DNA of 63,449 nt, from assembly GCF_004010195.1 (NCBI RefSeq), contig NC_057727.1:7735416-7798864 (forward strand). The letters are read 5' to 3'. The notes under the pieces were generated by a model. That model worked only from the letters and a program-made list of their open reading frames with translations. It had not been told where the DNA came from and made no database searches. A program made the position numbers and the translations under genes. Of the stretch, positions 1,551 to 55,747 are shown piece by piece (position 1 is the stretch's first letter; each line of letters opens with the position of its first letter). The stretch comes from Chiloscyllium plagiosum (lineage: Eukaryota).

Positions 1551-2405
1551 ACATGTCCTTCAACAATAACATAAAGCATTTCAGTTAATTCATACCTGAG
1601 ATAAAAGGGGGTTCAATTCTTCATAATCTTTTTGCTTCTACGAAAAGACTCGGAGTCTGCATGGCTCCTTAATCTCCACCTATATCAGATTGTCGGGCTT
1701 TTACTTGTTGATTCATTTACTAATAATCAACTTTAAAAATTAAACAAATTAATAAATAAATCTGGCACACGAGATAAATAAGGTGGGCAGGTGATGAGAA
1801 CAGTTCCCAAATGCTTCACAATCAATTAAGATCTCTCGAATGCTGTAAAGTAGCGATGACGTTGCTGGAGAGAAAAATATTTACCAGTATGTTGGACTTC
1901 GCTTCTCTGCTCTTTTTCCAACTAAGTTCGAGGTCTACCCAAACAAATTTCAGTTGAGCAAGACAACACCTTCAACATTGCAGCATAGAATCAGGAGTGG
2001 CACTGAAGTATTGGCCAAGATAGTGTCCTAAAATTGTTTGAGTCAGACATGAATGCACAACCTCCTGCCTCAGAGGAGACAGCACGCTACCCACCATGTC
2101 ACAGCTGACACTCATTAACCTTGCCACACTTAAAACTCACCCAGAGGACTCTTGTAGCGCAGTGGTAGTATCCCTACCTCTGACCCAGGAGCCCTAGGTT
2201 CAGGACCCACATTCCTCCAAAAGGTGTACAATAACATCTCTGCGTATGAGAATTAAAAGTAATATTTTAAAACTCATCCTTTTGGCCCCTTCCAAAGTTA
2301 GGTCAGAACGGGGTAAGTGGGAAGGCTGGGGTGAGATTCTACCTTAGCAATATCTCAATAAAAGGCAGTGCCTGAAAAACAACGAGACAGAAACCAAAGT
2401 GATAC

Positions 2406-4878: not shown

Positions 4879-6002
4879 CTGTTAAACAACAGAAAAATTT
4901 AAAAGAAAACTGTTTTTAAAATAATTATTTCTCTTTTACTTGCACTCATTATGTGGGAAAACTAGCAACGGTATAATTAAATTGAATCACATTGAAATTC
5001 CAGAACAGAATCAGGCCATTTGCACCAACTGATTCCTCCTGGTATTTGTACTTCATACAGCCCCCTACCATTTCTTCTATTCTAACTCTGACAGTATATC
5101 ACCTTCTATTCCTGTTCATTCTACTGTAGCTTCCCATTCAGTGCACCGTATTATTCACATCAACTACTGTCCTCTCTTCCAAGGTACAATCTCCTTTGTC
5201 TCCCACTCCAAAGTCTTGAACATGTTGTCAACTCCCAAATTCATGCCCACTATTCCGATAGCTGTTTCCTCACCAAAGCTATCAAATTTGGAATTGCTGC
5301 ATGTTTTATATGGTTTTAATGAGGTTTTATTCTTCCTGCTTTGGTTTTCCATATGTCTTAGCTTTAGAGACAGTTCTTATCCATCACAAATGATATCGTG
5401 GGTGTCTGCAATCATCATAATCTCCTCCTCATCCTTCTCTGCAGCCTTAAACACAACTGACTACACTGTTTCTCCATCTCTAGTTGCCCCAGGACAATGG
5501 CGGTAAACTACTTTCTCCACCAATTATTTCCAACTAAGCGGCTTTCTAGATCAACAAGTTCAACAAACAATCCATAGCGTCGGACTGCAGCTGCATGTAC
5601 AGCAAACTAGGTATAGGTATCTTGGAAAGATGTTAGTGACAATAACAGGGTTTTCCTCAACAGTCTGACAGCTATCAGGGTTATTTTTACAGTGCCTGCC
5701 CACTAAGTATCAGATTTGTTCAGCTCACTTTCATAATTACCATGATGGGTTTGAACAAAGTTCCTCAGTTCTCCCAATCCTGCACCAATAGCACTGTAAC
5801 CCAACATTCTCCAGTATAGTCAGAGTTAGAAGGTACCACTTATGGTGCAGTGATAGCACTCTCTTCCTAATAGTCACAAATTCAGGAGAGCAAATTCCAT
5901 TCCAGGAACTGGAACATCTGGATGTTAAGGGGTTGCTCCACTGTTGGGAGTTACTGCCTTTCAAATGAGACATCGGACTGAGCATATTTCATTGGGTAGA
6001 GT

Positions 6003-6040
6003 GATTCCTGAAGAAGGGCCTGTGCCCGAAACGTCGAATC
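6003..6040 (+). ncRNA. Minimal hammerhead ribozyme motif, intact core
   Basis: GATTC / CTGAAGA / A / GGGC-CTGT-GCCC / GAAA / C-GTC / GAATC. Helix I has 5 bp, helix III is reduced to the palindrome ACGT, and the cleavage triplet is GUC. Confidence 0.75.
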
Positions 6041-6132
6041 TCCTGTTCCCTGGATGCTGCCTGACCTGCTGTGCTGTTCCAGCAATAAAGTTTCAACTTT
6101 GATCTCCAGCATCTGCAGACCTCACTTTCTCC
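6003..6132 (+). mobile_element. Short Penelope-derived element starting at a hammerhead motif
   Basis: Same sequence family as the PLE terminus. Flanked by TAGAGTGAT at 5997-6005 and 6133-6141. Confidence 0.8.
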
Positions 6133-6236
6133 TAGAGTGATCCCAAGGCATCATTAAAAAAAATAGAAATGAAGCTCTCCCTCATATCTTGGTCAATATT
6201 TATCCCTCAATCATCATCAACGCAATCTTTCCAGAG

Positions 6237-6574
6237 TCCTGTGTGTCTGCTGTCCTTGTCCTTCTGGATGGTAGTGGTCATGGATGTGGAAGTGGAAGGT
6301 GCTATTGGAGGTTGGTGAGTGATCCAGCACAGCCTGTAAATGGTACACACTGTGTGTCAGTGGTGAAGGGAGTGAACGTTCAGAGTCTTGTTTGGCGTAC
6401 CAATCAAACAGGCTGCTCTCTCCTGGATAGTGTTGAGCTTCTCTGTGTCTTTCACCTGCTCTCACCCAGGCATTTGGAGACTATTCCATCACTCACCAAC
6501 CTCCAATAGCACCTTCCACTTCCACATCCATGACCACTACCATCCAGAAGGACAAGGACAGCAGACACACAGGA
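6237..6574. repeat. Perfect 87-bp inverted repeat (6237-6323 / 6488-6574) within an old LINE 3' fragment
   Basis: Base-by-base comparison shows the arms are exact reverse complements with a 164-bp spacer. Confidence 0.9.
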
Positions 6575-9086: not shown

Positions 9087-9586
9087 NNNNNNNNNNNNNN
9101 NNNNNNNNNNNNNNNNNNNNNNNNNNNNNNNNNNNNNNNNNNNNNNNNNNNNNNNNNNNNNNNNNNNNNNNNNNNNNNNNNNNNNNNNNNNNNNNNNNNN
9201 NNNNNNNNNNNNNNNNNNNNNNNNNNNNNNNNNNNNNNNNNNNNNNNNNNNNNNNNNNNNNNNNNNNNNNNNNNNNNNNNNNNNNNNNNNNNNNNNNNNN
9301 NNNNNNNNNNNNNNNNNNNNNNNNNNNNNNNNNNNNNNNNNNNNNNNNNNNNNNNNNNNNNNNNNNNNNNNNNNNNNNNNNNNNNNNNNNNNNNNNNNNN
9401 NNNNNNNNNNNNNNNNNNNNNNNNNNNNNNNNNNNNNNNNNNNNNNNNNNNNNNNNNNNNNNNNNNNNNNNNNNNNNNNNNNNNNNNNNNNNNNNNNNNN
9501 NNNNNNNNNNNNNNNNNNNNNNNNNNNNNNNNNNNNNNNNNNNNNNNNNNNNNNNNNNNNNNNNNNNNNNNNNNNNNNNNNNNNNN
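9087..9586. other. Assembly gap (500 N)
   Basis: Run of exactly 500 n, probably a nominal gap size. Confidence 1.
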
Positions 9587-10280
9587 GAGAGAATTTGGGC
9601 AGAGTACCAGCAATCCACCTCAGTCAAACATAGAACTCTCTATATGCAAAGTGTACTTTCTGGAGGACAGGTTAGCGATCGTGAATGGAGACCTCAACTG
9701 ATTTTGCTCAGAGATTTGCAAATGAATTTCAGTGCTGATCTGGTTGAGATGTTGTTAAGATGGTTGCAAGTTACGGTTAATCAAATACAATTACAGCAAA
9801 TGGCAGAATTTAAGCTAGAACTCTCATGATATGCACGGATCTGCATCACATCAGATGTGCACTAAATCCACAGTAGTCAACCACTATACTGAGGTGGGAT
9901 ATTTTGATCAGTCAGTTGATGAAGCTGGATTAAGTTAAAGGACTTAAAGCACTACAACTAGCGTTAGCACCTCGGCTTGGAGGGACATTCCATTTGGTGG
10001 GGGGGGGTTAGGTGTTAAACAAATCTTTCAGATTGAATTCCAGATATTATGTAGTACCAGGTGTTTGGGGTCAGCTGAAATGAACAGCAAAATTAAGTGA
10101 AAAGGTCAGAAAATTGCTGAAGAGCTTATGTTGCTGAAATATTTCATCTTTCACTCATCTGGACAAATGAAAGAATGTCTTATCTCAACTGATCACAGTT
10201 ATTTATTCTCCAGGAGAACAGGCTGACAGACTGGTGAATCAACTTTGACCGGCCAAGATGGTATCATGGAAAATGCAAGC

Positions 10281-19730: not shown

Positions 19731-21798
19731 GTGGGTATTGTATCGTAAGGTACTGAAGTATTTATTCCATTGTTTTGTTCCACGCTATGAACAATTTCAT
19801 GAGCTCCCAGTCAATATTTTTCTAATAAAATCAGACAAAAATCAGCTATCAAAAGATTTGATGAGACCCCATGCTTATGGAGGAGTTAAGATACATAATG
19901 ATGTTGACATATACACAGTACTTCTGTGCCTGTACTTCTGATATTATGGATAATTTGACTTTTGAACAGCAGACAATGATCCTTTGAGTAATCCCAGCTA
20001 ATGCCAAGTTTCCAATTTAAAAAAAAAGCACCAATATAAATACCCTCACCTCTGCATTCCAAGCAAGGATTAGAATCAGGAGGGTGTATGTTAGTAGATG
20101 CTGGAAAGGAGTGGGAATCTTGCAGAGGCCTTCCCTAAGTCCTGGAACTGTGTTTGGAACTCTGGCTGATAAAAGTGAACTCTATTTAAGTGCTTTCTTT
20201 TTATTCTTTTCTAACTCAAAATGGCACCAGATTGTGGTGATGGAACACTTGTCATTGTACCTCTCTAGATATATGTGATAATAAATCAATCATGCATTCT
20301 CTTTTTGAAGGATATTCTCAGAGATGTGATCTATATAGACTTCAGTAAGGCGTTCAACAAGGTTCCCCATGGGAGACTGATTAGCAAGGTTAGATCTCAT
20401 GAAATACGGAGAGAACTAGCCATTTGGATGCAGAACTGGCTCAAAGGTAGAAGTCAGAGGGTGATGGTGGAGGGTTGTTTTTCAGACTGGAGGCCTGTGA
20501 CCATTGGAGTGCCACAAAGATCGGTGCTGGGCCCTCTACTTTTTGTCATTTATATAAATGATTTGGATGCAAGCATAAGAGGTACAGTTAGTAAGTTTGC
20601 AGCTGACACCAAAATTGCAGGTGTAGTGGACAGCGAAGAGGGTTACCTCAGATTACAACAGGATCTGGACCAGATGGGCTAATGGGCTGAGAAGTGGCAG
20701 ATGGAGTTTAATTCAGATAAATGTGAGGTGCTGCATTTTGGGAAAGCAAATCTTAGCAGGACTTATACACTTAATGGTAAGGTCCTACGGAGACCTTGTA
20801 GTGCAGGTTCATAGCTCCTTGAAAGTGGAATTGCAGGTAGATAGAATAGTGACGAAAGCGTTCGGTATGCTTTCCTTTATTGGTCAGAGTATTGAGTACA
20901 GGAGTTGGAAGGTCATGTTGCGGCTGTACAGGACATTGATTAGGCCACTATTGGAAAATTGCGAGCAATTCTGGTCTCCTTCCTATCAGAAAGATGTTGT
21001 GAAACTTGAAAGGGTTCAGAAAAGATTTACAAGGATGTTGCCAGGGTTGGAGGATCTGAGCTACAGGGAGAGGCTGAACAGGCTGGGGCTGTTTTCCCTG
21101 GAGCGTCGGAGGCTGAGGGGTGACCTTACAGAAGTTTACAAAATTATGAGGGGCATGGATAGGATAAATAGGAAAAGTCTTTTCCCTGGGGTCGGGGAGT
21201 CCAGAACTAGAGGGCATAGGTTTAGAGTGAGAGGGGAAAGATATAAAAGAGACCTAAGGTGCATCTTTTTCACGCAGAGGGTGGTACGTGTATGGAATGA
21301 GCTGACAGGGGATGTGGCGGAGGCTGGTACAATTGTGACATTTAAGAGGCATGTGGATGGGAATATGAATAGGAAGGGTTTGGAGGGATATGGGCCGGGT
21401 GCTGGCAGGTGGGACTAGATTGGGTTGGGATGTCTGGTCGGCGTGGACGGGTTGGACCGAAGGGTCTGTTTCCATGCTGTACGTCTCTATGACTCTAAAC
21501 ACTCTAGCTTTTCCATTTCCATTGCCTAATTTTGACTACAGCTTACTTTAGACTCTTCGCATTGAATAGGAAGCTTCTCATTGACTTCAACTTTGATTAT
21601 GCATCCCCTTCTGAAATACCAGCCGACATTTCACTTTTAATCCTGCTGCTTCAGTTTTGATTTTAGATTTCCAGTTTACTTTTCAGTTCTAAGAAAAGCA
21701 GAGACCATAGCGTAAGTTGCTTTTGCTCATGAAATTGTTCATAGCGTGGAACAAAACTATGGAATAAATACTTCAATACCTTACGACACAATATCCAC
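19731..21798. repeat. 74-bp inverted repeat pair (19731-19804 / 21725-21798)
   Basis: Reverse complements with 4 mismatches by manual comparison. Confidence 0.85.
20323..21497 (+). mobile_element. 5'-truncated CR1 LINE (RT C-terminal half and 3' tail)
   Basis: DVIYIDFSKAFNKVPH...SVLGPLLF...RLRGDLTEVYKIM, with a CTCTATGACTCTA tail. Confidence 0.92.
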
Positions 21799-36110: not shown

Positions 36111-36184
36111 GAATATCACGGTCTGCTCAGTTCGGTTGAGTTCTTTGGTCTGACCCAAGTGACACGGGAACCACAAGAACTGTG

Positions 36185-36507
36185 ATGGCATGCACAGCAT
36201 CTAGACATGTTCCCAAACTCAGCCTGCAGAGTTTATTATTCATTGTAACCTGTCTGTTGCCTGTGGCTTCTCACGGGCTGTCGGTAAACCTGGCCAGTTC
36301 CACCAGATGCTTGCACATCCCTAAGACGATGGCTCTGTGCTACGACATCGGCTATACTGAGATGAGAATCCCTAACTTACTCGGGCACGAAACACTGCCT
36401 GAAGTAATCCAGCAGTCCACCAGCTGGTTATCCTTACTGGCCAGAGAATGTCATCCAGACGCCAGGATCTTCCTTTGTTCGCTTATTGCACCGGTTTGCA
36501 TGGACAG
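36185..36507 (+). CDS. frzb2: Crescent (secreted frizzled-related protein) exon 1: signal peptide and first half of the Frizzled CRD
   Basis: Hydrophobic leader, then CLHIPKTMALCYDIGYTEMRIPNLLGHETLPEVIQQSTSWLSLLARECHPDARIFLCSL, which is Crescent-type rather than Sizzled-type. Donor AG|GTAAG. Confidence 0.9.
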
Positions 36508-37489
36508 GTAAGCAGCGTAAACAGTACTCGCCCAATAACCCACGTTGCTCTTCCTCATCTGACACGTCAACCGTAACAGTGTGAATATACAGAAATCAAA
36601 TTAGCATCAAGTATCAAACGAAAAGAGAAATACGTAACGAGTTGCCTTGTGAAATGTTTTTTCTTTGCTCTCGGGTTTACATGCCCCAAGGTACCAATAA
36701 ACATTTACCCTGTGTCAGTGACACTATTGTCAATTTGTAAAATGGAATCAATTAAGTATTTGTTTAATACGAGGCCTTTTTGAGTGATGTATTTTATTTT
36801 GGTTTTAAGTTATGTATCAGTCTAACATCGCTGAACGGTTTTATTTTCTGAAAGCGAACTGAAATGCAATTATTCCAGTTTTCAAATTCCCAACCTCGCC
36901 GCCTCTAGTTATGCGACAGGCGGTTTTCAGGTGAGGTTCATTTCTATCAGTTTTCACTTTTTTGGGGGAGGGGTTGGGTGGGCAAGAAGACACTCCTTAA
37001 ATTCTTATTTCTCTTCCATTTCCCGTCAACATCCGTGGTCTAATCTTGTTTGTCGGGCTCTCCAGACAGATTAACATTCTGGTACATCTCTTGTTTTCCC
37101 TTTTCCTGTGGGAATTTAAAATTCCTGGTTCTCACTGGACATCTGTCTTACATGTCGCACATTTTCCAATAAGAAATCACTGAGCTGAGATCAGGAACTA
37201 GAAGTCTGGCTCAAATCTTGTATTCCCAGTCAACAGAATTAAAAAGTAAGGCAAGTTGCTTAGCCCTACTTGAGAGCAGCATGCGTATAATAGAAAACAT
37301 TTGGGGCTACTGGAGGGTGTGTGCAGAGATTTGTTTAGAAGAATGATACCCGAAATATCTACGCATAGATATCAAGAAAGTTTGTTTTCTCTTTTCAAAA
37401 GGCTACAGGATGATCGAGTAAAGGTCTTTAAATGTGAAACGGTTTGATAGGGTGGATACGTGGAGAATATTTACTCTTGTAGGGAAGAG

Positions 37490-38253
37490 AAAGGGAGGAC
37501 TGCAGATGCTAGAGATCAGAGTCCACAGTGTGTTGCTGTGAAAGCACAACAGGTCAGGAGCAGGAGAATCAATGTTTTGGGCATAAGCCCTTCATCAGGA
37601 ATGAGGCTTGTAGGCTGGGGCTGAGAGATAAGTGGGAGGAGGGATGGGTAGCTGGGAAAGCTATAGGTGGATGAAGGTGAGGGAGAAGGTAATAGGTCAG
37701 AAGGGCGGTGCCAAGTTGGAGGCTTGGGACTGAGATAATGGGGGGGGGGGGTGAAATTAGCAAAATGTTGAAATCCACATTTATCCAGTGTGGTTGCAGG
37801 GTCCCAAGGCGGAATATGAGGCATTATTCCTCCAGGCTTCGGGTGGTAACGATTTGGCGCTGGAGGAGGCAGAAACCCAGGACCCACATGTCCTTGACAG
37901 AGCGGGAGAGGGCATTGAAGCGTTCAGCCACGGGGCGGTGGGTGCAGGTGTCCCTTGAAATGATCTGTAAGCAGGTGCCCTGTCTCCCCGATGTAGAGGA
38001 GACCACACCAGGCGCAATGGATGCAGTAGATGACATTGATAGAGGTACAGGTAAATTTCTGACAGATGTGGAAGGATTCCTTGGGGCCTTGGACGGAGTT
38101 GAGGGGAGTGGTGTGGGAGCAGGTTTTGCACTTCCTGCGGTGGCAGGGGAAGGCATCGTGAGTTGGGTGTGGGCTGGTGTTGGGGGGGGGGGGGCATCGT
38201 TTTGACGAGAAAGTCGCAGAGGGAATGCTGATAGGGGTACGGAGGGAACTATA
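37490..38253 (-). mobile_element. Penelope-like element 3' fragment (GIY-YIG remnant) inserted in a CR1 tail
   Basis: Homologous to 1-498 with a degenerate hammerhead at about 37570-37602. TSD TCTT(G/A)TAGGGAAGAG at 37475-37489 and 38254-38268. Confidence 0.85.
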
Positions 38254-38633
38254 TCTTATAGGGAAGAGTTTAACAAGAAGACATCAATAAAGGACTTTCA
38301 CCATGAAATCCAAGAGTGAATTCAAAATAAATTTTTATTTCAACCTAAGAATGGCAACAATGTAGAACTTATTACCTGGGATGAAATGTAGATGCATTTA
38401 AGGGAGGCAAGACAAGCAAATGAGGGAAAATAGAATAGAGTCACAATAGGTTTAACTGGGAAAGATGGGAAGATGCTTAAATAGATCATTAACACTGATA
38501 TGGCCTGGCTGGGTTGAATAAGCTGTTTCTGTGCCATTTTTTAATGTAATAATACTCAGTACCAGTTCCAAAAACACAGCAAGCTCAATGCAGAGCATGA
38601 ATTGAGGCTGGCTATTTCTCTTCTGTTTGATTG

Positions 38634-39045
38634 GGGAGAAAGTGAGGTCTGCAGATGCTGGAGATCAAAGTTGAAACTTTATTGCTGGAACAGCACAGCA
38701 GGTCAGGCAGCATCCAGGGAACAGGAGATTCGACGTTTCGGGCACAGGCCCTTCCTCATTTGCTTGTCTTGCCTCCCTTAAATGCATCTACATTTCATCC
38801 CAGGTAATGAGTTCTACATTGTTGCCATTCTTAGGTTGAAATAAAAATTTATTTTGAATTCACTCTTGGATTTCATGGTGAAAGTCCTTTATTGATGTCT
38901 TCTTGTTAAACTCTTCCCTATAAGATATAGTTCCCTCCGTACCCCTATCAGCATTCCTGAGGAAGGGCCTGTGCCCGAAACGTCGAATCTCCTGTTCCCT
39001 GGATGCTGCCTGACCTGCTGTGCTATTCCAGCAATAAAGTTTCAA
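38634..39045. mobile_element. Composite insertion: two inverted PLE-terminal arms enclosing an inverted copy of 38222-38425
   Basis: 16-bp TSD CTCTTCTGTTTGATTG at 38618-38633 and 39046-39061. Arms match the 6003-6132 element. Confidence 0.9.
38953..38988 (+). ncRNA. Minimal hammerhead ribozyme motif, intact core
   Basis: ATTC / CTGAGGA / A / GGGC-CTGT-GCCC / GAAA / C-GTC / GAAT. Confidence 0.7.
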
Positions 39046-39324
39046 CTCTTCTGTTTGATTGCCCATTTGACACGAGTTTAAGTTTCCTTCAGTTCATCAT
39101 CAGTACTGTATATGTAAGCCATCATCTTTGGTTCATGCCAGCATCTGTATATGATTGTTTCAACTCTGTCAGCTTCCCTTGCTGCCTGTTCAAATGAAAG
39201 CAGGTGATGTGGACCTTTGGTAATCTATTCAACTTAAAGTTGTCTACCTCATCACATAGTCAGTAATGGAAACAACTTTATTTCATAGTTCCATAAAAAT
39301 ACTCAATTGTGCTCCTTAGCTTAC

Positions 39325-39584
39325 TTAGTGTTGAAACAGGCCCTTCAGCCCAACAAGTCCACACCGACCCACCGAAGCGCAACCCACCCAGACCCGTTCC
39401 CCTACATTTACCCCTTCACATAACCTGCACATCTTTGGATGAAGAATCATCTTTGGGCTGTGGGAGGAAACCCACACAGACACAGGGAGAATGGGCAAAC
39501 TCCAGTCAGTCGCCTGAGGCAGGAATTGAACCCAGGTCTCTGGCGCTGTGAGGCAGCAGTGCTAACCACTGTGCCACCATGCCA
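39325..39584 (-). mobile_element. V-SINE (HE1-like)
   Basis: tRNA-like head GTGGCATGGTGGCACAGTGGTTAGCACTGCTGCCTCACAGCGCC on the minus strand. Confidence 0.85.
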
Positions 39585-40454
39585 CTTATTCTCTTCCTGG
39601 CTGAAAGCCAAACCCATGAGCTCTTGAATGAAATTCTTAAACATTCTATTCAGAAGTGTCCTCTTCTCTATCCTTAAAATGTCAGTTGTTCCACAGTTCT
39701 ACTGTAAGCCCATGGTTTCAAACATGTTCCTATTTCAAGCATCAGCATCAAACTGGAGCATTTCCACACACATATTCTAGCTTGCTCCCTCCTTTTTTTG
39801 ATTTTTGGATTACTGCTCGTAATCTTTGGAGACTGAACTGGCAACATCCAAAATCAGAATGTCCTACAATCTTTCTTCCACATTTTAAAGCCGGAGATTA
39901 AAAATATGCACATAGCTACCATGGCACGCCTCAGTGCCCCATATGCTGCAGGGGAATGCTAAGTTGATTTGAAACATTAATAAGAGATCTGATGTTGACC
40001 ATAGTTTGTACAGTAAGGTTTGCAACATCTGAACTCAGTGCTTTGTACATTTGACCCAGTTTTCACCACTGTATGATCATCCAATACTGCAGTTATTTAA
40101 AGCTACAGTACAAAATTTCTGAGACATGAAATTTTGTCTCACATCGGAAACACCCCAACTTCTAAACTACATGAAATGGTGATCACCTACATTGTGATAT
40201 AGGGATAAAAGATTTCTGGAAGTTGTTCTAACGTAATGGTTTTGACTGGCGCAGATTTGCATCAAGGGCCTTTTTTGTGCTGTAGACCTCAATTATTCTA
40301 TGACGTTAGAGCATCTAAGATTGACGCGATCTATTAGTATTAAAATTGCATCAAATGGGAAAGGAATGCCAGAACACAAATGTATAGGTGCTGCAAAAAA
40401 AAAAAAACACCACACCAATGAAGAACTATTTAGTTTAGTGTGGATTATGATATA

Positions 40455-40750
40455 GAATCATGGAACCCCTAGTATGGAAGTAGACCATTTGGCCTGAGTC
40501 CACGTCAACTCTCTGAACAGCATCAGAGAGACCAGACCAGACCAACTCCCCACTACCCTGTCCCTGTAAACCTGTACTCCCTGTGGCTAATCCACCTAAC
40601 ATGCACACTTTTGGTGGTGTGGGAGGAAACTGGAGCACCCAGAAGAAACCTATGCAGACACGTAGAGAATTTGCAAACTCTGCACAGACAGTCACCCGAG
40701 AGTGAAATTGAACCTGGGCCTATGGAACTGTGAGCCAACATACCACCCAC
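40455..40750 (-). mobile_element. V-SINE (HE1-like), more diverged
   Basis: V-domain recognisable on the minus strand. Confidence 0.75.
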
Positions 40751-41811
40751 TAATATAGTTGTCCTGGGGTTGTGAGTACTTTCAAGTTGTGTTTATTGGT
40801 GATGCCACAATTAATTTATGTATTGAAAAACAAACAAACAATCTAAGCTTGATTAGACACATTTTAAGTGGAAATTCTTTAAGGAGATACAGGAACATTT
40901 AGGTTTCACTTCCTAATTATTTGGGGAAGTGGTGACCTAGTAGTATTATCGATAGACTACTAATTCAGAGACTCCGCTAGTGTCTAGAGACCTGGGTTCA
41001 AATTCTGTCATGGCAGATGGTTGAATTTGAATTCAATGAAAGTCTGAAAGTAAGAGTCTAATGATGATCATGAATCCACTGTTAATAGTTGGAAAACCCA
41101 TCTAGTTCACTAATGTCCTTTTAGTGCCCATTCTTACCTGGTCTGGCCTATGTGACTCCAGAACCACAGCAATGGACAATTAGGGATGGGCAATAAATGC
41201 TGGCCTAGCTAAATGACAATCACAGCCCATGAATCAATAAATGCTAATGAAATTACTGAACACAGCTTTGAAATGCATCATTTTCAAGAATATGCTTTTG
41301 TAACAGGTCAGTAATTTTGGACAAAAAACACATTTTTCTTTTAATCTAAAGAAAACATCACCTCTTTATATTCACTATATAAAATCTAAAATCAGAGGGA
41401 CACAGTCTGAATAACGAATCAGCCTTTTAGGACTGAGATCAGGAGAAAGTCCTTCACTCAGAAGGTTCAGCACTATTGAAATTCTCATCCATACAGTGTT
41501 GTAGATATTCTCAGTAATTGAGCATCTAAGTCAGATTGACAGATTGTTGGAATCAAGAGATATAGATAGATGTGGGAATGTGTGGCTGAGGTAGAAAATC
41601 AGTTACAATCTGAATACATGAGAGAGTAGGTGTGAAGGGTCGACTGCCTATATCTACTCATATTTCTTCTATTTATGATCTTTTGAAATTATAAAGCCAC
41701 ATAATACACAGATCACAGCCAGATGTTCAAACTGAAAGAAAGGAACAGAACTCATTGCAGAACACTCGCCACAGTTAACACAATATCCTCTTGATTTTTG
41801 CCCTTTTTAAG

Positions 41812-41981
41812 GTTTATATACCCCTGTCGCAGCCTCTGTGTATCAGTGAGGAACAGCTGCGCTCCTATCATGGCTTGCTATGGTTATCCATGGCCAGAGA
41901 TACTGAATTGCAACAAGTTTCCCCCTGACCATGGCATGTGCATTTCTTCCATCAGCAACAAGACAGCATCACATAGAAGCA
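41812..41981 (+). CDS. frzb2: Crescent exon 2: second half of the CRD (FIYPCRSLCVSVRNSCAPIMACYGYPWPEILNCNKFPPDHGMCISSISNKTASHRS)
   Basis: 170 nt, AAG acceptor and A|GTAAGT donor. Phase matches exon 1. Confidence 0.92.
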
Positions 41982-42304
41982 GTAAGTAGTTTTGATTCAA
42001 CATTGTTTTTTATTTAATGGTATATCTTTCAAACAAATCCAAACAATTTTTAAATCAAATCTCATTCTTTTCTGGTTATAAGTAAACTATTTCAAGTTGG
42101 TTTCTGATATCCTGTAAATGTGAACAAACAGACAATGGAACAAACAAAACGAAATGAAAGTTACAAGGATTATCTAATCTTTTCCCTCAGGATAAACTTA
42201 ATAATGCGTACATTATTCATTGCACTAAACCAGAATGTAGCACCACACCAGTTCTTACTTGGAATTCTTCACAAGATAAATGCTGTCAGGTGAAACCTTT
42301 AGCA

Positions 42305-43095
42305 TAGAGTCAGAGATGTACAGCATTGAAACAGACCCTTTGGTCTAACCCGTCCATGCCAACCTGATATCCCAACCCAATCTAGTCCCACCTGCCAGCA
42401 CCCAGCCCGTATCCCTCCAAACCCTTCCTATTCATATATACATCCAAATGCCTCTTAAATGTTGCAATTGTACCAGCCTCCACCACATCCTCTGGCAGCT
42501 CATTCCATACATGTACCACCCTCTGCGTGAAAAAGTTGCCCCTTAGGTCTCTTTTATATCTTTCCCCTCTCACCCTAAACCTATGCCCTCTAGTTCGGGA
42601 CTCCCGACCCCAGGGAAAAGACTTTGCCTATTTACCATATCCATGCCCCCCAATTTTGTAAATCTCTAAGATCACCCCTCAGCCTCCGACGCTCCAGGGA
42701 AAACAGCCCCAGCCTGTTCAGCCTCTCCCTGCAGCTCAGATCCTCCAACCCTAGCAGCATCCTTGTAAATATTTTCTGAACCCTTTCAAGTTTCACAACA
42801 TCTTTCCAATAGAAAGGAGACCAGAATTGCACGCAATAACCAATGTCCTGTACAGCTGCAACATGACCTTCCAACTCCTGTACTCAATACTCTGACCAAT
42901 AAAGGAAAGCATACCAAACGCCTTCTTCACTATCCTATCTACCTGTGACTCCACTTTCAAAGGAGCTATGAACCTGTACTCCAAGGTCTCTTTGTTCAAC
43001 AACACTCCCTAGGACCTTACCATTAAGTGTACAAGTCCTGCTAAGATTTGCTTTCCCAAAATGCAGCACCTCGCATTTATCTGAATTAAACTCTA
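42305..43095 (-). mobile_element. CR1 LINE 3' fragment
   Basis: Same subfamily as 20323-21497 in the opposite orientation. Confidence 0.9.
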
Positions 43096-46000
43096 TAGTT
43101 AAAAAAGAAAAGTCCTTAAGAGGAAGAAAATGAGAGAACCATTCATGCTATTGTTCTGTTTTCCTTGCATTCTATTGGAGATCTGGAAGCAATTCAGCTA
43201 CCAATGCTCTCTTGAGGAATAAAATATTAAATGGGGGATCTTTACATCAAGGGACTGGTTATGGAAAACCTACAGAGATGCCAACTGATCAGGTAATAGC
43301 ACAGCCTGATGAAGAAATCTCAAATTCCTGGTCTGTGTGGTTCAGTTAATGCCTTAGTATACCCACTATGCCTGTGGAATGATCAGTGCTTCAGACAAAT
43401 GCAATACATTTTATTAACTTACTAAAACATACTGTTCAGCTGAATGTTGTATAGTGGCTAAGTATCTATTTTATTGCCCATTTACCCACCCTCCCCTCTG
43501 TGAAGTACTTAACTTCTTTGTTTCAATATGCTAACTGGGTTGAATGTCTTCATTCTCCCTACGTTTACTGTACTGGCACATCAGACATTTTCCCATCCTC
43601 AGTCATGGACTTAGCATTATCTCTGTCAATGTACTGATAATTCTGATTATGAAGACAAAAAATTGAAATGTTCACCAGGCTACGTTGAAGCTTGAACAAT
43701 TTCAGTTAAAGATTTGTCAATGAGTTCTAGCAGGGTGTCATGCTCATTCTTTTTCGCCTTGAATGCACCTTCATACAAAATCTGCTAGTTTCTATCACCT
43801 GACTTTTCTATGGCAAAAAAGTGCTTGACTTCCAGTCTTGGGCCTTTGAACCCATGCTCCCTACCTGAACTTTGGCCTCTCTCTGGACACTCAGCCACCA
43901 TTCAGCTACTAAAACCCAGCACAAACCCCTTTCCACTCGCATAGATTCCTTCCTGCAGTTTCGTCCCAGCCAGCATTTACTTATCAAGTTGCTTGCTGCT
44001 TTTCCAATCATGGATAGTTTCTCTCCCACATTTGTTCCTCATAGATTTACTAGAGGCACAAACTGTTAACCACTCTCCAAAATAATTTCAAGGACAGTTA
44101 TGGATGGGCAACAAATGCTGGCCTTGTCAGTGACACCTCTAAGAATGAAGACTTAAAAAGAATGATATTTAGCCTACTTTGTATTGGCTTGTCACTTGGC
44201 CCTTTAGAGTGTTTTCATCTTATTAGGTTCCGTTGCTCTCATGACAAGGTTGTCCTTCTCCTCTCAAGAGTTGTCTGTGATTCTTCCTGTTTTCTGCTTT
44301 CAACACACTTTGAATAGTTTTCTTTCAAGCCAGATCCTCTTTGGACTGTCTGACAAAGACTCATCAATAATTCCAAGATTTTATATCTTATAAATTGTAA
44401 TTTAAAGCTCCATGTCTCAATTTTCCACTATACTGGAGAGATCATTAATGAAATTTTGTAGTCCCTGGATGCGGAACTCTTGCTCAATCAAGTGTTTTAT
44501 TTGTTCTCAAGAATAAACTAATTCTCAAAAGCTTGTCAATTTTTTTCTATAGTATCTGTGCCTTCTTTTGAGTTTGGTAAGTTATAACATCGGCAGTAGA
44601 TCCCATGATTATAGTACAGTGTACTTATTTAACATGAGTTTGAAGTATGGTCTTCAAGGATATCCAATCCTATTCTATTTGACACATATCTAACATGAAA
44701 TCTTGTGTACAGCATTATTTCTCCAATATTTTCCTAATGTGATTTAGTTTTCTTAAGGCTATTAAATTGTGCACACAATTTCAATGCTGCTGCGATTTCT
44801 TCCCCTTAAAGACTTTTACTTCTGTAATTAGCTATAAAGTCTCACTTTCCTTGTCTAAATGCTAAACCATCCAGTATATCAGTACCATTTTTTTCATAAA
44901 TTTGATTGTTAATGTACTTCTTACTGGGGCTTTTCCTGGATTTTCACAGGTCAGACAAAATTGAAGTTTCCTATTTTATTGCAGGCAAATAGACAATTTC
45001 CTGTCTTTGACAGCCTAATAAACAATGCATGTTCTTTTCTACAATTCCCAAAACAGACCTTGTGCTCAAAGTCTTAATCAATTCTTCCCGTCAGGCCCAG
45101 AGTTTAAATTATGGATCTACTGCTTTATCACAAAGATTTCGTTCCCATCTTCTTTTGTTAAGATTGTCTACTTTAGCTTTTAAATTGTTCCTTTTGTCAT
45201 TTTTATCCTATTTTATGATCTTATAGTTGCTACGACCTTGAATATAAAGTACTTCTGTAGCTCTGAGTTTCTTCACCATAGCAGTGCTCATGATTTCTAC
45301 TCACTATGGTGGCAACACCCATTGTGAGCTGTACTTATTCTTTCTTTCTTTCTTTCCTTCTAGACGTTTTCAGCTGATTTTGTCATGTTAATCTAAGGGT
45401 TATCTCCTTGCGCAATAAAGATTCGTAATTTTGTACAAAGAGGTTCACGACATAAATTTCTTAGCCAAGCCTCTAACCAGGAATGCTGCTACAGATACGT
45501 GTATCCTGATGAAATCTGTAATGATCAAGTGTGATAAGTCTTCAAGCTATTTTATATCTTATACTGCTTCTTTTGCATGTCTTACCAGGTTTGATGTCAA
45601 GGCTTTAGTCTTGCCCCAGGTTTCAACTGACTGCTGGTTATTCAAATGCTTGCAACTCCTGATTGTCTACTTTAGTACTTAAAAGTGGCAATGTTCATAA
45701 AGCTGTGAACTCACTTGGTCTTCTGGACAATTTCTTCTTCTGGGATTTTTTTTCATCATTTTCCCTTATGGTATGAAGCAACAATGCCCACTGCTGATCA
45801 CCATGTGGTATCTGTGGGTCGAAGGACGTTGCCACCAATCCTCTTCCCTTGGCTGTGTCTAATGGCCTTATCGGTTTACGGAGGTAAAGGATTAATCATT
45901 GAATAAAATTAATAAGAAAATGCTCTTTTCTGAAAAAAAAGCAATAGCAACACATTACATCAGTCAGATAAAATGTTACTACTAAGACTATAAGGAAAAG

Positions 46001-46660
46001 CATGAATATATGATATCCTACGTTGCTCTGCCTTATTGCCACCAGATTGGTTGGATCTCAATGGAGTCTGCAACTTTAATCCTTTCAGAACCTTTGTACC
46101 AGAAATGAACAACAGAAATCAGTAAACAGTGCTAGGAACTTGTCAGGTTAACATAAAAACTCAAGGTGTGTCATGTCTAAGGTCTGTTATCCAATGTGAC
46201 TACAATGTAACTCCATTACCTCTTAACTAAAGAGCACAAAATATTCTGATTGTTGCCAAGAATAAAAGGAAGGGACAGAATGTGTGAATGTCATTTTGCA
46301 TCCAGGAATCTCAAAAGTGTAGAGAAATTTCATAGTCAAACAAATTCAAAGGCTTTGCATTTTAACACATCCAAAATGAGCTTGATAAACTGATGGCACA
46401 AATCAAGGGAAGTGGTTGTGATCTCAGTCTAGGTCGCGGGCATAGTCTCAGGATAAAGAGGCCCAATTTAAGACTGAGATGAGGAGCAATTTCTTCTCTC
46501 AAAAGGGTTAATAAATTACAAGTTATTTAGACTTAATATGATGAGGAACTTCTTCACTCAGAGGATGGCAAATTTTCTATCCCAGAGGGCTGTGAAAGTT
46601 CAGTCATTAAGTTCAACAGAGATTGATAGATTTCTAGAAATGAATTACAGGAAGGAACAT

Positions 46661-46875
46661 AGTTAAAAATCACAACACCAGGTTATAGTCCAACAGGTTT
46701 AAGTGGAAGCACACTAGCTTTCAGAGCGTCACTCCTTCATCAGGACTACCACCGGATGAAGGAGCAATGATCCAAAAGCTGGTGTGCTTCCAATTAAACC
46801 TGTTGGATTATAACCTGGTGTTGTGTGATTTTTAACTTTGTATACCCCAGTCCAACACCGACATCCTCAAATCAG
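46661..46875. mobile_element. Fold-back PLE-type element (second family) with hammerhead motifs at the centre
   Basis: Imperfect palindrome 46661-46837. Minus strand reads CTGATGA-AGGAG-TGACG-CTCT-GAAA-GCTA. It sits inside a CR1 tail. Confidence 0.75.
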
Positions 46876-47367
46876 GAAAGGGACATGGTATAGTGCAGGA
46901 AAATTATGTTGAATTAGGTGATCAGCCATGGCCTAGAATGGCAGAGCAGACTCAAAGAGCTGAATCATCTACTCCTGCTTTCATATTTCAACATTGATGT
47001 AGCTGAGGATATGAAATAAGCACTGGATATGTCAGCAACACCATGCCCCAAGAATTTATTATAATACTCAAGCTTCATTGTGATTTGTCATTTAAATATT
47101 AATAGTATTTAAGGTGTGCATCTTTTACAAATTGCAATAATAACAGGGACGCAAGAAATATAGTTAACATCACATTACATTTTTCATCCTAAATGCTGGT
47201 ATGACAAATTCTAGTCAATATAAGCATTTATGGAATGTGCATTTCAATGGGTCCACAATACAGTCAGCCAAACCAAGTACTTAAATAATAGAAAACAAGC
47301 TTCATCTCTTCCTTATCCACTATTGATGCTGGCAAGTTTTCAAGCAGATACTCAATACAGGTAATTT

Positions 47368-48310
47368 AGAACATAAGAACTAGGAGCAGGAGTAAGCATC
47401 TGGCCCTTTGAGCCTGCTCTGGCATTCAATTAGATCATGGCTGATTTTTTAATGGCCTCAACTCCACGGACCCACCCTCTCACCACAACCCTTAATTCCT
47501 TTACTGTTTATAAAAAAATTATCCATCTTAGCTTTAAAAACATTCAATAAGGAAGGCTCAACTACTTCACTGGGCAGGGAATTCCACAGATTCACAACCC
47601 TTGGGGTGAAGAAGTTCCTCCTCAATTCAATCTAAATTTGCTCCCCCTAATTTTGAGGCTATGCCCTCTTGTTCTAGTTTCACCCAACAGAAGAAACAAC
47701 CTTTCTGCTTCTATCTTATAGAAATATATAAAATTATGAAAGGAGTAGACAAGATTTCCCTCATTCTTCTAAATTCCAATGAATATAATCCCAGTCTACT
47801 CACTCTCTCCTCATAAGCCAACCCGCTCAACTTGGAATCAAACTACTGAATCTCCTCTGCACCCCCTCCACCACTGCCAGTATATCCTTTCTCAAGTAAG
47901 GAGAGCAATACTGGATGCAGTACTCCAGGTGTGGCCTCACCAGCCTCCCATACAGCTGCAACTTAATCCCCCTCCTTTTAAACTCAATCTCTCTAGCAAT
48001 GAGGACAAAATTCCATTTTGCCTTCTTAATTACCTGCTGCACCTGCAAACCAACTTTTTGCAATTCACGCACAGCAGCATGCTGCAATTTTGTACCATTC
48101 AAATAATAGCCCCTTTTACTGTTACTCCTACCAAAATGGATGACTTCACATTTGTCAACATTGTACTCAATCTACCAGACATTTGCCACTCACTTAAACT
48201 ATGTCCTTCTGCAAACATTCAGCATCCTCTGCATGCTTTGCTGTACCATTTATCTTAGTTTCATCCACAAACTTTGACACACTACACGTGGTCCCCAAAT
48301 CCAAATCATC
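47368..48310 (-). mobile_element. CR1 LINE 3' fragment
   Basis: [26 protein letters not shown] remnant and tail. Confidence 0.88.
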
Positions 48311-48577
48311 CATGTTCTCTAATTTCTCTCCATCTTGTAGTGTCTTGGAGCAGTAAGATCAGTACAATTGCTGCAAAGACAGAGATAATGTATTTCGTAC
48401 AGACCAGTGATTAGACAGACATTACATCACTGGAGGTGTTGCACAATGATACTTTCCTCATTCTTCACTTCAATACATCGCACGCTATTTCTTTTTCCAT
48501 TCCAAACAATTTCTGGTTAAGCTCGTCTAGGCATATAGCTTCATCATTAAATTAATCCAGTATACCACAGAGTTACA

Positions 48578-48770
48578 GGGTAAAAACAATGACTGCAGAT
48601 GCTGGAAACCAGATTCTGGATTAGAGGTGCTGGAAAAGCACAGCAGTTCAGGCAGCATCCAAGGCGCAGTAAAATCGACGTTTCGGAAAGGCCTTTTGCC
48701 CGAAACGTCGATTTTACTGCTCCTCGGATGCTGCCTGAACTGCTGTGCTTTTCCAGCACCTCTAATCCAG
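48578..48770. mobile_element. Fold-back PLE-terminal element
   Basis: Palindrome 48616-48770. TSD TACCACAGAGTTACA at 48563-48577 and 48771-48785. Confidence 0.85.
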
Positions 48771-49147
48771 TACCACAGAGTTACAATCCAATTACCTAAT
48801 GTAGAGTACAGTAGACTACATAACCCAGGTTGGCAGCACGGTGGCTATAGCTCAAACACTCCGACCCTGTCTACGTCATCATATTGATAGCTGAACAGTC
48901 GCTCTGGATTCTTAACTTTTGCAGTTATGTTCAGTTATTTTGTCCTTTTTTTGAGTGGTTGGTTTGCTGCAGTCAGATTAAGAGTTTGTCTTGACCTTTT
49001 CCCTTCTGACTGCCTTGTCAGCTAGTTCGGTTGTCAGATCATTAGAATCATTTTACCTGGAATGCAGAGCTACATTAGGTGATTCTTCAACTGTGACGTT
49101 CATAGCACACTAGCACTTGAACCCAGGCTTGCGTCCACAATGCCTCA

Positions 49148-49271
49148 TTCCTTATGAAGGGCTTTTGCCCAAAGTGTCGATTCTCCTGTTCCTTGGATGC
49201 TGCCTGACCTGCTGTACTTTTCCAGCATCACACTCTCGACTCTGACCTCCAGCATCTGCAGTCCTCACTTT
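49148..49271 (+). mobile_element. Solo short PLE-derived element with decayed hammerhead
   Basis: 16-bp TSD CGTCCACAATGCCTCA at 49132-49147 and 49272-49287. Confidence 0.85.
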
Positions 49272-49962
49272 CGTCCACAATGCCTCAGTTCTCTAGCAGA
49301 CCATCTTCCATGAGCATCCTTAGACCAGGGTAGCAGTAGTTTTTAACCTATTTTTAATTTTCACAAAAAATGTTAAGTGGTGGTGGTTTTCTCCGGGGAA
49401 GGGAAGGAATACTCAACTCCCTTCTACCTCTTCTTGTTTGGTGTCTCTTTTGGTTTGAGGTCGCCCTGACACTTTACAGGTGCAACATTCTATGGGTCCC
49501 ACACAGAACTCTGCAAGATAACACTCATCCACAGTCTGTCTCAGTCCTCTTAAAAAAAAGGGATTTAGATTTACAAGTTAAAGATGTCCATTGCACTTTA
49601 AGACTCTAATTCGTTGACATAACAAGGCACTCAAAGCTATTTTCACCAGATGGATCATATGAACACAGAATTAGGAGCAGGAAGAGGCCATCTGGTTCTT
49701 TGCACATTCTGCTATTCATGAAGATCATAGCTGAACTGATTACTCCACATTTATTTCAACTCAGATAACCTTACAGCTCTTACTCATCAAGAATCTACCT
49801 TTTACCTCAGAAACATTTGAATGAAGAATAAAAGAACTAATATAAGCTTCAACTCCTATCCCCCAAACAAAGTTGGAAAAACACAAGACTGGTTCATTGT
49901 AAAGCACCGTAACCATAATACCTGCGTCTAATAAATATATATTTCTGTTCATTACATAACAG

Positions 49963-50049
49963 TGCCTCAAGCAAGCTGTCAAGACTGTGAATTAGAAGAA
50001 ACTACCTCAACAAAACAAATACTCAATATATTTTGTTCACATGATTTTG
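49963..50049 (+). CDS. frzb2: Crescent exon 3: start of the netrin (NTR) domain (MPQASCQDCELEETTSTKQILNIFCSHDF)
   Basis: 87 nt, CAG acceptor and G|GTAAGT donor, phase 1-1. Matches Crescent PRASCRDCELEE...FCHNDF. Not in the ORF track. Confidence 0.92.
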
Positions 50050-50084
50050 GTAAGTACAATTTGAGACAATAATGAAAGGGTAGA

Positions 50085-54129: not shown

Positions 54130-54705
54130 GATAGAACGGTATATTTGTAAATATGTATTAAGTAACTGTAAAGATCCTATAAAGTACTTTATCTTTTTCA
54201 GTGCTGATGTCCATTCTTAATAGCAAATTACGATCAAGAGTCAGAAATTTAGAATTGGGGCAGAAAGTGATCTCTATGAAATAGAGGGAATTTCGACAAG
54301 TATCAAGGTGGAGTCTTTTATTGACATGAAGTCTGCAAGATTTATAAACAAAGTAATATCTACTTATTCCCAGCCCATTTGTTGTCTGTGTATGCTCAAA
54401 CAATCAGGACTACACAGGCTACACTAGATTAAATTTACATTAAATTAGTACCTGTTTTATCTTAACAATCTAATCATTTTGAGGCTTTGAATTCTTCGAT
54501 ATTTTTCCTCCAAATATCTGTTGTTGATCAGCTCCAACCATTGTCAGCATCATACCTTTTTCTTTAAGAATATGAATTGGCCCCTTGACTCTTTCAGTTT
54601 TTATTCAACACGATATTAATCGAACATGAGTCAAATTACTTTTGCAAAAACTTTAGTCAGACTGCAGCAGTAAGATCAACTACAAAACTGTATGATATAT
54701 ATTGC

Positions 54706-54912
54706 TGAAAATGTGTTGCTGGAAAAGCACAGCAGGTCAGGCAGCATCCAGGGAACAGGAGAATCGACGTTTCGGGCATAAGCCCTTCTTCAGGAAGGGC
54801 TTATGCCCGAAACGTCGATTCTCCTGTTCCCTTCATGCTGCCTGACCTGCTGCGCTTTTCCAGCAACACATTTTCAGCTCTGATCTCCAGCCTCTGCAGA
54901 CCTCACTTTCTC
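54706..54912. mobile_element. Fold-back PLE-terminal element with a hammerhead core on the minus strand
   Basis: Palindrome 54704-54878 with a 5-nt loop. 18-bp TSD CTGTATGATATATATTGC at 54688-54705 and 54913-54930. Confidence 0.88.
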
Positions 54913-55747
54913 CTGTATGATATATATTGCCAACTTTGTCTATACAGAGATAGCAAAGACTAACTAGGATAATGTCCATGCTTGAAAGATTTAAAAAGTT
55001 CAAAATGTTGGAACTGAAAAGGTTAAACAGTAAATCTAAGAGATAAAATTCTCAAATGTTTCAAGGGAGTAATGCATTGTTCTGTGAATTAGTAAAAAAA
55101 AAGGCAAAGATTCCATGTTAGAATCACACAAAGAAGAAAACTACTCAGTCTATCATCCTTATGCCAGCTCTTCACAAATTCTCTTGTTTTTCCACACAGT
55201 ATTGTTAATTATTCCTTTATGATTATCATTGGAAATAAGCAAAATCTGTTTTATTTGCAGTATTGTTTGAACAGGGTGGTTTACCACAAGAACTCATGAA
55301 ATAACCACCAATTCTGGCTAAGAAATAATAAAAGCATTAAAAATTATAGGCAAATGAAAATGGCATATATAGTTTCAGTTATAGAGTAGAATGCCTTTGT
55401 GTTGTAAATTCTATACATACAAATTTTTTGAGATTATTAGTTGATATTAGTCGCTGTTTGCAAAGTACAAATGCACAATGGATACAAACCTCTGATAAAA
55501 TTGTTCTTCATTTAAAGTGGTATTTTGATACACTTCCTTAGTAGGTTGAAGTGTATTGTGCAGAATGGACTGAGTCTGTAGAATAGGAAGGTCAAAGTAA
55601 TGCATCCTGAATTAAATTACATCCAGGCATTGTGACAGTAGGAAATCTACCTTTGGGTCAGCCTTCCTTTCAGAGTGAAGTAGAAAAAAAAGTTAATTTT
55701 CTGCACTTCTTGACCACCATTACTTTTTCTGAAATGCATGTGTGGAC

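Follow-up and report, generated by a model that had tools for sequence, protein, structure and literature searches.

The insertion described here lies in a window of 63,449 nucleotides from Chiloscyllium plagiosum, and all positions below are those of this window. A Frizzled-domain gene of the Sizzled/Crescent type runs from about 36140 to 50069 on the plus strand. It is nested, in antisense, within an intron of P4HTM that measures about 29.5 kb (approximately 30500-59900, minus strand). The exons of P4HTM match 6TP5, and a further exon, marked by a motif that we take to belong to this gene, presumably lies near 30.3-30.5 kb. We also take a WD40 gene at 2339-4915 (minus strand), downstream of P4HTM, to be WDR6-like. 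The best solved relative of the Frizzled-domain gene is Xenopus Sizzled, and the evidence fits Crescent or Sizzled alike. The original prediction had placed the insertion in the pre-mRNAs of Crescent and P4HTM. The site does lie in intron 1 of the Sizzled/Crescent-type gene, inside the P4HTM intron. Hairpin-forming fold-backs are frequent in these introns. A 500-N assembly gap at about 9090-9590 is distant from the insertion.

Within intron 1, a 16-bp direct repeat (38618-38633 and 39046-39061) encloses 412 bp of inserted DNA (Table 1). It had been proposed as a target-site duplication (TSD), and this it is: the two copies are identical throughout, and the empty alleles of two related species hold one copy. 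Inside the repeat are two arms of a Penelope-like element on opposite strands, placed as predicted, which are arranged head-to-head and are complementary at 89 of 90 positions (38669-38758 against 38958-39047). The long arm has 125 nt and differs at two of these from a solo copy of the same end elsewhere in the window (6009-6133). The short arm matches the first 88-90 of them. A tail of 35-37 nt is carried by the long arm, at its outer end (38634 to about 38668).

Table 1. Positions, strands and distinguishing marks of the features at the insertion site.
Feature	Position	Strand	Remarks
Intron 1 of the Sizzled/Crescent-type Frizzled-domain gene (bounds approximate)	36508..41813	+	Contains the insertion
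Older 5′-truncated Penelope-like element	37490..38253	-	GIY-YIG remnant, own hammerhead end, own TSD
Source of the copy	38222..38425	+	Present once in relatives
TSD, left copy	38618..38633	+	CTCTTCTGTTTGATTG, 16 bp; the empty alleles of X9 and X13 have one copy
Long arm, Penelope-like 3′ end (pseudo-LTR)	38634..38758	-	123/125 identical to solo 6009-6133
Left switch point	38754..38760	+	CCTCA common to arm and source; CCTCATT when two loop bases at the 5′ end of the family are included
Captured DNA, inverted copy of 38222-38425	38754..38957	-	203/204 against the source in the window
Right switch point	38952..38957	+	CATTCC common to source and family 5′ end
Short arm, pseudo-LTR end without tail	38952..39045	+	2 nt (CT) common to the TSD
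Candidate minimal hammerhead motif	38953..38988	+	By inspection of the sequence; motif type as in PMC4209133
TSD, right copy	39046..39061	+	CTCTTCTGTTTGATTG, 16/16 identical to the left copy

The 412-bp insert has no ORF for a reverse transcriptase (RT) or endonuclease (EN) and is a truncated Penelope product, not an autonomous element. Penelope insertion units are described as an inverted 5′-truncated pseudo-LTR, a one-sided tail of 30-40 bp, a TSD and a minimal hammerhead (passages in PMC3846280, PMC8557442, PMC4209133 and PMC11167929). Judged by its sequence, the insert is an EN+ Penelope-like insertion unit by every structural feature tested: it has an inverted 5′-truncated copy adjoining the first copy, a tail in the range of 30-40 bp confined to one end, and a 16-bp TSD that is single in two relatives. 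Its arms are head-to-head, one of them bears the tail, and the minimal hammerhead sits at their 5′ end, as in the published units. Unlike these, it has no ORF between the arms, and its junction is not a direct overlap of the arms; it consists of 204 bp copied from DNA beside the target.

The family can be recognized from other copies in the window. The older element next to the insertion has a 15-nt TSD of its own (37475-89 and 38254-68, one mismatch); the DNA into which it went is decayed and CR1-like. Its end at 37487-37603 shares 72-83% identity with the arms, which ties them to a family with RT and GIY-YIG domains. The remnant ORF of the older element matches 17 of 20 candidate proteins, one of which carries RVT_1 and GIY-YIG slightly below the Pfam cut-offs. 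A Pfam search with the remnant itself gave no match. Three solo ends (6004-6133, 49147-49272 and 408-492) have a common start point just upstream of the hammerhead. For 6004-6133 and 49147-49272 there are TSDs, which overlap at their ends with the 5′ letters of the element. Two fold-backs of the family without any spacer are also found in the window, at 48591-48770 and 54704-54913. Both combine a long and a short arm, carry the tail on one arm and have TSDs (that of 48591-48770 with a 2-nt indel), and their centres are within or adjoin the hammerhead motif. The layout of our insertion, with its tail on one arm, thus matches two of two other family fold-backs in the window. The original prediction saw the capture of neighbouring DNA as a snapshot of how Penelope fold-backs form. 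This was overstated, as both of the other fold-backs are without a spacer. Pattern scans for further arm pairs gave no match in metagenome contigs and none in viral contigs; a second arm-pair pattern hit five loci with matches of only 22-27 nt, and these were rejected as chance.

The family 5′ end reads CCTCATTCC in the older copy and in the solo end at 49147, and is followed by the core CTGA-N-GA. In the right arm the hammerhead appears complete by inspection: helix I is ATTC/GAAT, the core CTGAGGA starts at 38957, helix II is GGGC/GCCC, and GAAA occupies 38977-80, which places the predicted ribozyme cut after 38984. The left-arm motif is without C3 and without the 5′ strand of helix I. Searched at Rfam gathering thresholds, the whole window gave no match, and the predicted stability of the hammerhead fold is nothing unusual (z 0.43). 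Single minimal hammerheads are reported not to cleave in vitro, and a dimer is thought to be needed (PMC4209133, in the part cited). Both arms have a G at hammerhead position 7, where a 99%-identical solo has an A. With this G the family 5′ end can be read as a 5-bp hairpin, with CCTCA and TGAGG enclosing the loop TTCC.

Between the arms lies an inverted copy of nearby DNA. The inverted repeat 38222-38425/38754-38957 extends over 204 nt with a single mismatch, as had been noted, and the match breaks off sharply at both ends. The mismatch is at 38370, which is T in the source; the corresponding position in the copy, 38809, reads C in source orientation. Position 38370 is C in the sequencing runs X5, X9 and X13, as it is in the copy, so the copy agrees with the state of these runs at 204 of 204 positions. 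Because all three carry the C, the mismatch is read most simply as a later change in the source of the window.

The local origin of the copy, put by the original prediction at some 200-400 bp away, stands up well: the source is adjacent and single-copy, and the relatives hold it once. From its near end it is 192 bp to the TSD and 208 bp to the point of insertion, so that the source spans 208-412 bp upstream. It contains the end of the old Penelope fragment, the TSD of that fragment (38254-38268) and decayed CR1-like DNA. Since the old TSD junction lies inside the captured 204 bp, these are specific to this site. The copy had been said to span a junction between a Penelope fragment and a CR1. 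The old Penelope end, its TSD and the adjoining DNA are all there, and the CR1 identity is weakly supported. In a pairwise test of the DNA beside the old fragment, scored against 100 shuffles for each of seven CR1 copies of the window, all shuffles were beaten for only two of the seven (z 3.4-3.5). A profile built from the seven copies found no significant match in 38255-38545. The insert is exactly as long as the stretch between the far end of the source and the point of insertion (412 in each case; 38222-39045); this was seen post hoc and is probably chance.

The alleles of the site were examined in contigs of four sequencing runs (of 24) aligned to 38100-39300. Runs X1 and X5 are from the same species as the window, and X9 and X13 from related species. 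The search for an empty allele in relatives, which had been suggested as a check, succeeded in both related-species runs, and each has one copy of the TSD. In X9, record 26 joins 38242-38617 to 39046-39300 (376 and 252 letters either side), and in X13, record 9 joins 38181-38617 to 39046-39300 (425 and 255 letters). The 428 bp skipped in both are the 412-bp insert plus one TSD copy. The flanks differ from the window at about 3.8% of letters in X9 (24/628) and 4.4% in X13 (30/680). The insertion is probably younger than the splits from these two species.

The filled allele is seen in the same-species runs. Record 1 of X1 crosses the junction between the copy and the right arm with 0 differences, reaching 23 nt into the arm past the microhomology. 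Record 15 of X5 crosses from the TSD into the left arm by 23 nt, and record 7 of X1 from the right arm into the TSD by 20 nt. All three are below the 31 nt that serve as the standard for bridging. The junction between the left arm and the copy is absent among the 32 contig pieces listed, beyond which there are 92,547 further pieces. In X5 (sample S3) the left-arm junction is present, with a depth over the copy of 0-4 compared with 6 over the flank. Record 1 of X1 takes an unusual path: it follows the minus strand from 38639 to 38371 and then the plus strand from 38809 to 38980, which equals an inversion of 38426-38753. Either the allele is inverted between source and copy, or the record is a walk through a collapsed repeat.

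The depth of these contigs also speaks to the origin of the spacer. Over the arms it reaches about 1e6; over the spacer it is 0-40, and 0 in the two relatives. The spacer is accordingly not multicopy, and its presence at unrelated loci, named beforehand as contrary evidence, was not seen in the four runs. This largely refutes the notion of a spacer carried as cargo by a mobile composite element, or of an assembly chimera, a very improbable reading also on the grounds that the spacer crosses the site-specific old TSD junction (present once in relatives), that X1 record 1 passes from copy to right arm with 0 differences and that source and copy are unlike at one base; in its favour, Penelope units are known to trouble assemblies (PMC8557442, in part).

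The two ends of the copy are informative. Both joints show the microhomology claimed for them, CCTCA at 38754-58 and ATTCC at 38953-57, for a joint chance of about 1e-5. Measured against the family 5′ end, the overlap is 5 nt on the left, or 7 nt with the first two loop bases included, and on the right it is 6 nt. Random joining would give overlaps of at least 5 and at least 6 nt with a probability of 7e-6, and of 5 and 5 nt with 2.5e-5. Two template switches guided by microhomology, as the original prediction had it, are supported. Loose ends before 38952 in the X5 contigs end in CCT, with low overall agreement.

Both switch points are at the ordinary 5′ end of the family, and the predicted ribozyme cut lies some 26-32 nt farther downstream. 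For this reason the hammerhead appears to be a passenger in the capture, and junctions set by ribozyme-cut RNA ends are ruled out. The positions agree with a report in which uncut RNA is the main substrate and ribozyme cleavage is dispensable in vitro (PMC11167929, in the part cited). Together the 5′ ends lose only about 5 nt. This compares with 18-140 nt in 14 of 15 spacerless joints at other loci, these being the best-supported 15 of 235, with ends blurred by subfamily mismatches; the remaining one loses just 3 nt. The small loss modestly favours a bridging of two seemingly intact ends during integration.

The reading that we favour, with somewhat better than even confidence, is that of one young Penelope-like insertion whose inverted ends were bridged by a 204-bp copy, probably made when synthesis switched to another template and back again in the course of sealing. 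The GIY-YIG nuclease would have made a cut with a stagger of 16 nt, as suggested by the TSD and by in vitro work on an anole element. Both 3′ ends would have primed reverse transcription, one at the end of the tail and the other about 35 nt inside. In vitro, both target strands are nicked and extended, and there are two RT start sites a tail apart (passages of PMC11167929). Both cDNAs would have ended at the usual 5′ end of the family, just upstream of the hammerhead. The end of the top-strand cDNA, CCTCA(TT), may then have folded back in cis onto (AA)TGAGG at 38419-38425, across a loop of 328 nt, at a landing site that was probably bared by resection of the opposite strand. About 200 nt would have been copied error-free from the source. 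The new end, CATTCC, would then have paired with GGAATG in the other cDNA, before the gaps were filled and ligated. The copying polymerase could be either a host repair polymerase or the RT of the element.

The call for a second cDNA comes from the right switch point. In the short arm the family sequence runs on beyond CATTCC, which is absent from the long arm; the probability that chance recreated it is about 1.5e-3. Because the long arm offers no CATTCC landing site, a second antisense template is needed. The sequence thus calls for two antisense cDNAs, and such a pair supports twin priming for Penelope fold-backs. The snap-back of a single cDNA is ruled out, as the GGAATG landing site is absent from the long arm. 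The hammerhead of the old element (37598) was likewise considered as the return template and ruled out, because its sequence differs. Both clocks of the event are near zero: the arms are complementary at 89/90 positions, and the copy agrees with the state of the other runs at 204/204.

Of the claim of a single integration event with two template switches, the two switches hold, and it is probable that capture and integration were one event. We say probable because a later repair of the hairpin tip, or a jump of the RT onto pre-mRNA, would leave identical sequence. Two observations count against the bridging of two cDNAs in particular. The centre of the insertion reads equally as the tip of a spacerless palindrome with about 200 nt inserted and CATT on both sides. 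Furthermore, the source is 192-208 bp off, beyond the typical templates of L1 (within 15 bp) and of Pol theta (within 50 bp).

The first of these observations leads to an alternative in two steps, which we hold to be unlikely. A spacerless palindrome would have come first, and a later polymerase stall or nick repair at the hairpin tip would have been patched with nearby DNA. With matches of 7 and 6 nt, the junctions look as they would if DNA had been inserted into a perfect tip; fold-backs without a spacer are the norm; and foldback templated insertion at breaks requires no retroelement (PMC11724301 and PMC9303309, in part). The low depth over the copy in X5, next to a left-arm junction that is seen, leaves room for a spacerless allele, but it is also expected from a 204-bp repeat collapsed in the contig graph. 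Next to nothing is missing from either arm, whereas a break at a hairpin tip would be expected to trim them. The two clocks, both near zero, likewise speak against a later repair.

Somewhat more doubtful is a jump of the RT from the element RNA onto the nascent pre-mRNA of either overlapping host gene, with about 200 nt of intron copied before joining. The source is intronic on both strands, and an RNA template is thus possible in either orientation in principle; a resection of 400 nt becomes unnecessary. There is also one L1 case with a co-inserted piece of local pre-mRNA (PMC10191854, in the part cited). Such a jump does require germline transcription at the moment of insertion, and in the sources cited DNA-templated snap-back is the commoner documented route.

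A bolder version of this idea, to which we likewise give little credence, is that Penelope integration in this lineage is a regular two-cDNA reaction, in which the RT itself jumps to nearby DNA or nascent pre-mRNA and so bridges the ends. If this were true, a small fraction of very many insertions would carry local inverted duplications, many long and perfect intronic RNA duplexes would be seeded, and there would be a genome-scale fossil record from which to read the joining step of Penelope.

As to structure in RNA, the original prediction had described a nested double hairpin. This does not hold: the order is source, long arm, copy, short arm (a<b<a′<b′), so that the two stems cross, and the short arm follows the copy without any linker. 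The stems compete and cannot both form fully. For the two strands, the predicted energies of the 204-bp stem are -370 and -365 kcal/mol, and those of the arm stem -170 and -175. The predicted fold contains the 204-bp stem, with the arm stem displaced, and in this model the winning stem would also occupy the 5′ half of helix I in the only hammerhead that is complete.

Comparable products have been described before for L1 and R2, and by analogy the Penelope case would be a variant of such events. In L1, foldback inverted duplications of 52-220 bp are found upstream of the target, once with twin priming; there are four such events, about 0.3% of insertions (PMC10191854, in part). Templated insertions of <250 bp, for which the template typically lies no more than 15 bp away, account for 22/3,598 (a passage of bioRxiv 2024.08.27.596794). 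A model of resection and self-annealing has been put forward for resected L1 ends (parts of bioRxiv 2024.12.14.628481; earlier version PMC11702581), and two L1 cDNAs sealing one site have been described (PMC13526784, in part). Our insertion resembles these products in its inverted local upstream copy, in the size range of 52-220 or <250 bp, in the microhomology at the switches, in the TSD and in the two primed ends. However, its arms are those of a Penelope element, and there is no L1 body with poly(A). Its copy is placed between two cDNAs and was apparently primed by a cDNA end. Where L1 templates typically lie within about 15 bp, the source here begins some 200 bp away (192-208 bp).

At R2 5′ junctions, the cDNA snaps back onto nearby rDNA (PMC11371274, in the part cited). 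As here, a cDNA 3′ end primes extra synthesis on neighbouring target DNA before closure, but that system is engineered and site-specific, with one cDNA and no second arm. Our insertion appears to work like the templated junctions of L1 and R2 and is, from the features compared, a member of neither class. There is also a likeness to snap-back SD-MMEJ and foldback templated insertion (passages of PMC9303309 and PMC11724301), where an inverted primer repeat in cis is followed by synthesis and by new microhomology to the other end. The inverted primer repeat and the new microhomology are both found here. The inserts described in those passages are mostly of 5-34 bp or have templates within about 50 bp, whereas ours has 204 bp, a loop of 328 nt and a template farther away than that.

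Host DNA framed by Penelope ends has been described in Adineta vaga, where non-element DNA lies between pLTRs with a TSD and an empty allele (PMC3846280, in part). That cargo, which had been brought to a new location, is flanked by direct pLTRs or sits in a 3′ spacer; the passages concerned contain no tracing of it to DNA beside the target. Transduction of that type would bring cargo from a distant locus or into several insertions; here the source is adjacent and the depth is that of a single copy. A literature search, in which subscription literature was thinly covered, found no report of local capture by Penelope elements or fold-backs, and a retrozyme preprint (10.64898/2026.07.22.740005) deals with neither inverted nor captured structures in its main text.

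The step that joins the ends in inverted Penelope structures is called unresolved in passages of PMC11167929 and PMC8557442. The present locus narrows it for one event: two cDNAs from both sides of the cut fit, and a single self-folding cDNA does not easily do so. It is one clean data point for two-cDNA joining. It also extends a rare L1 outcome to a third class of retroelement, in the germline and with the empty allele found. The single locus itself is a scar or fossil, with no sign of function.

Some further inverted structures in the window are worth recording. At 46657-46841 a different hammerhead-bearing family has a fold-back whose centre is only a few bases long; the sole TSD candidate of this fold-back has 7 nt (46641-46647 and 46910). 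Beside a solo Penelope end, a LINE-like piece contains an 87-nt inverted repeat with 100% identity (6237-6323 and 6488-6574), which resembles a twin-priming inversion with duplication. Finally, a 74-nt inverted copy of 94.6% identity (19731-19804 and 21725-21798), its halves 1.9 kb apart, flanks a CR1 at 20269-21497. This pair is possibly a second, older local templated copy.
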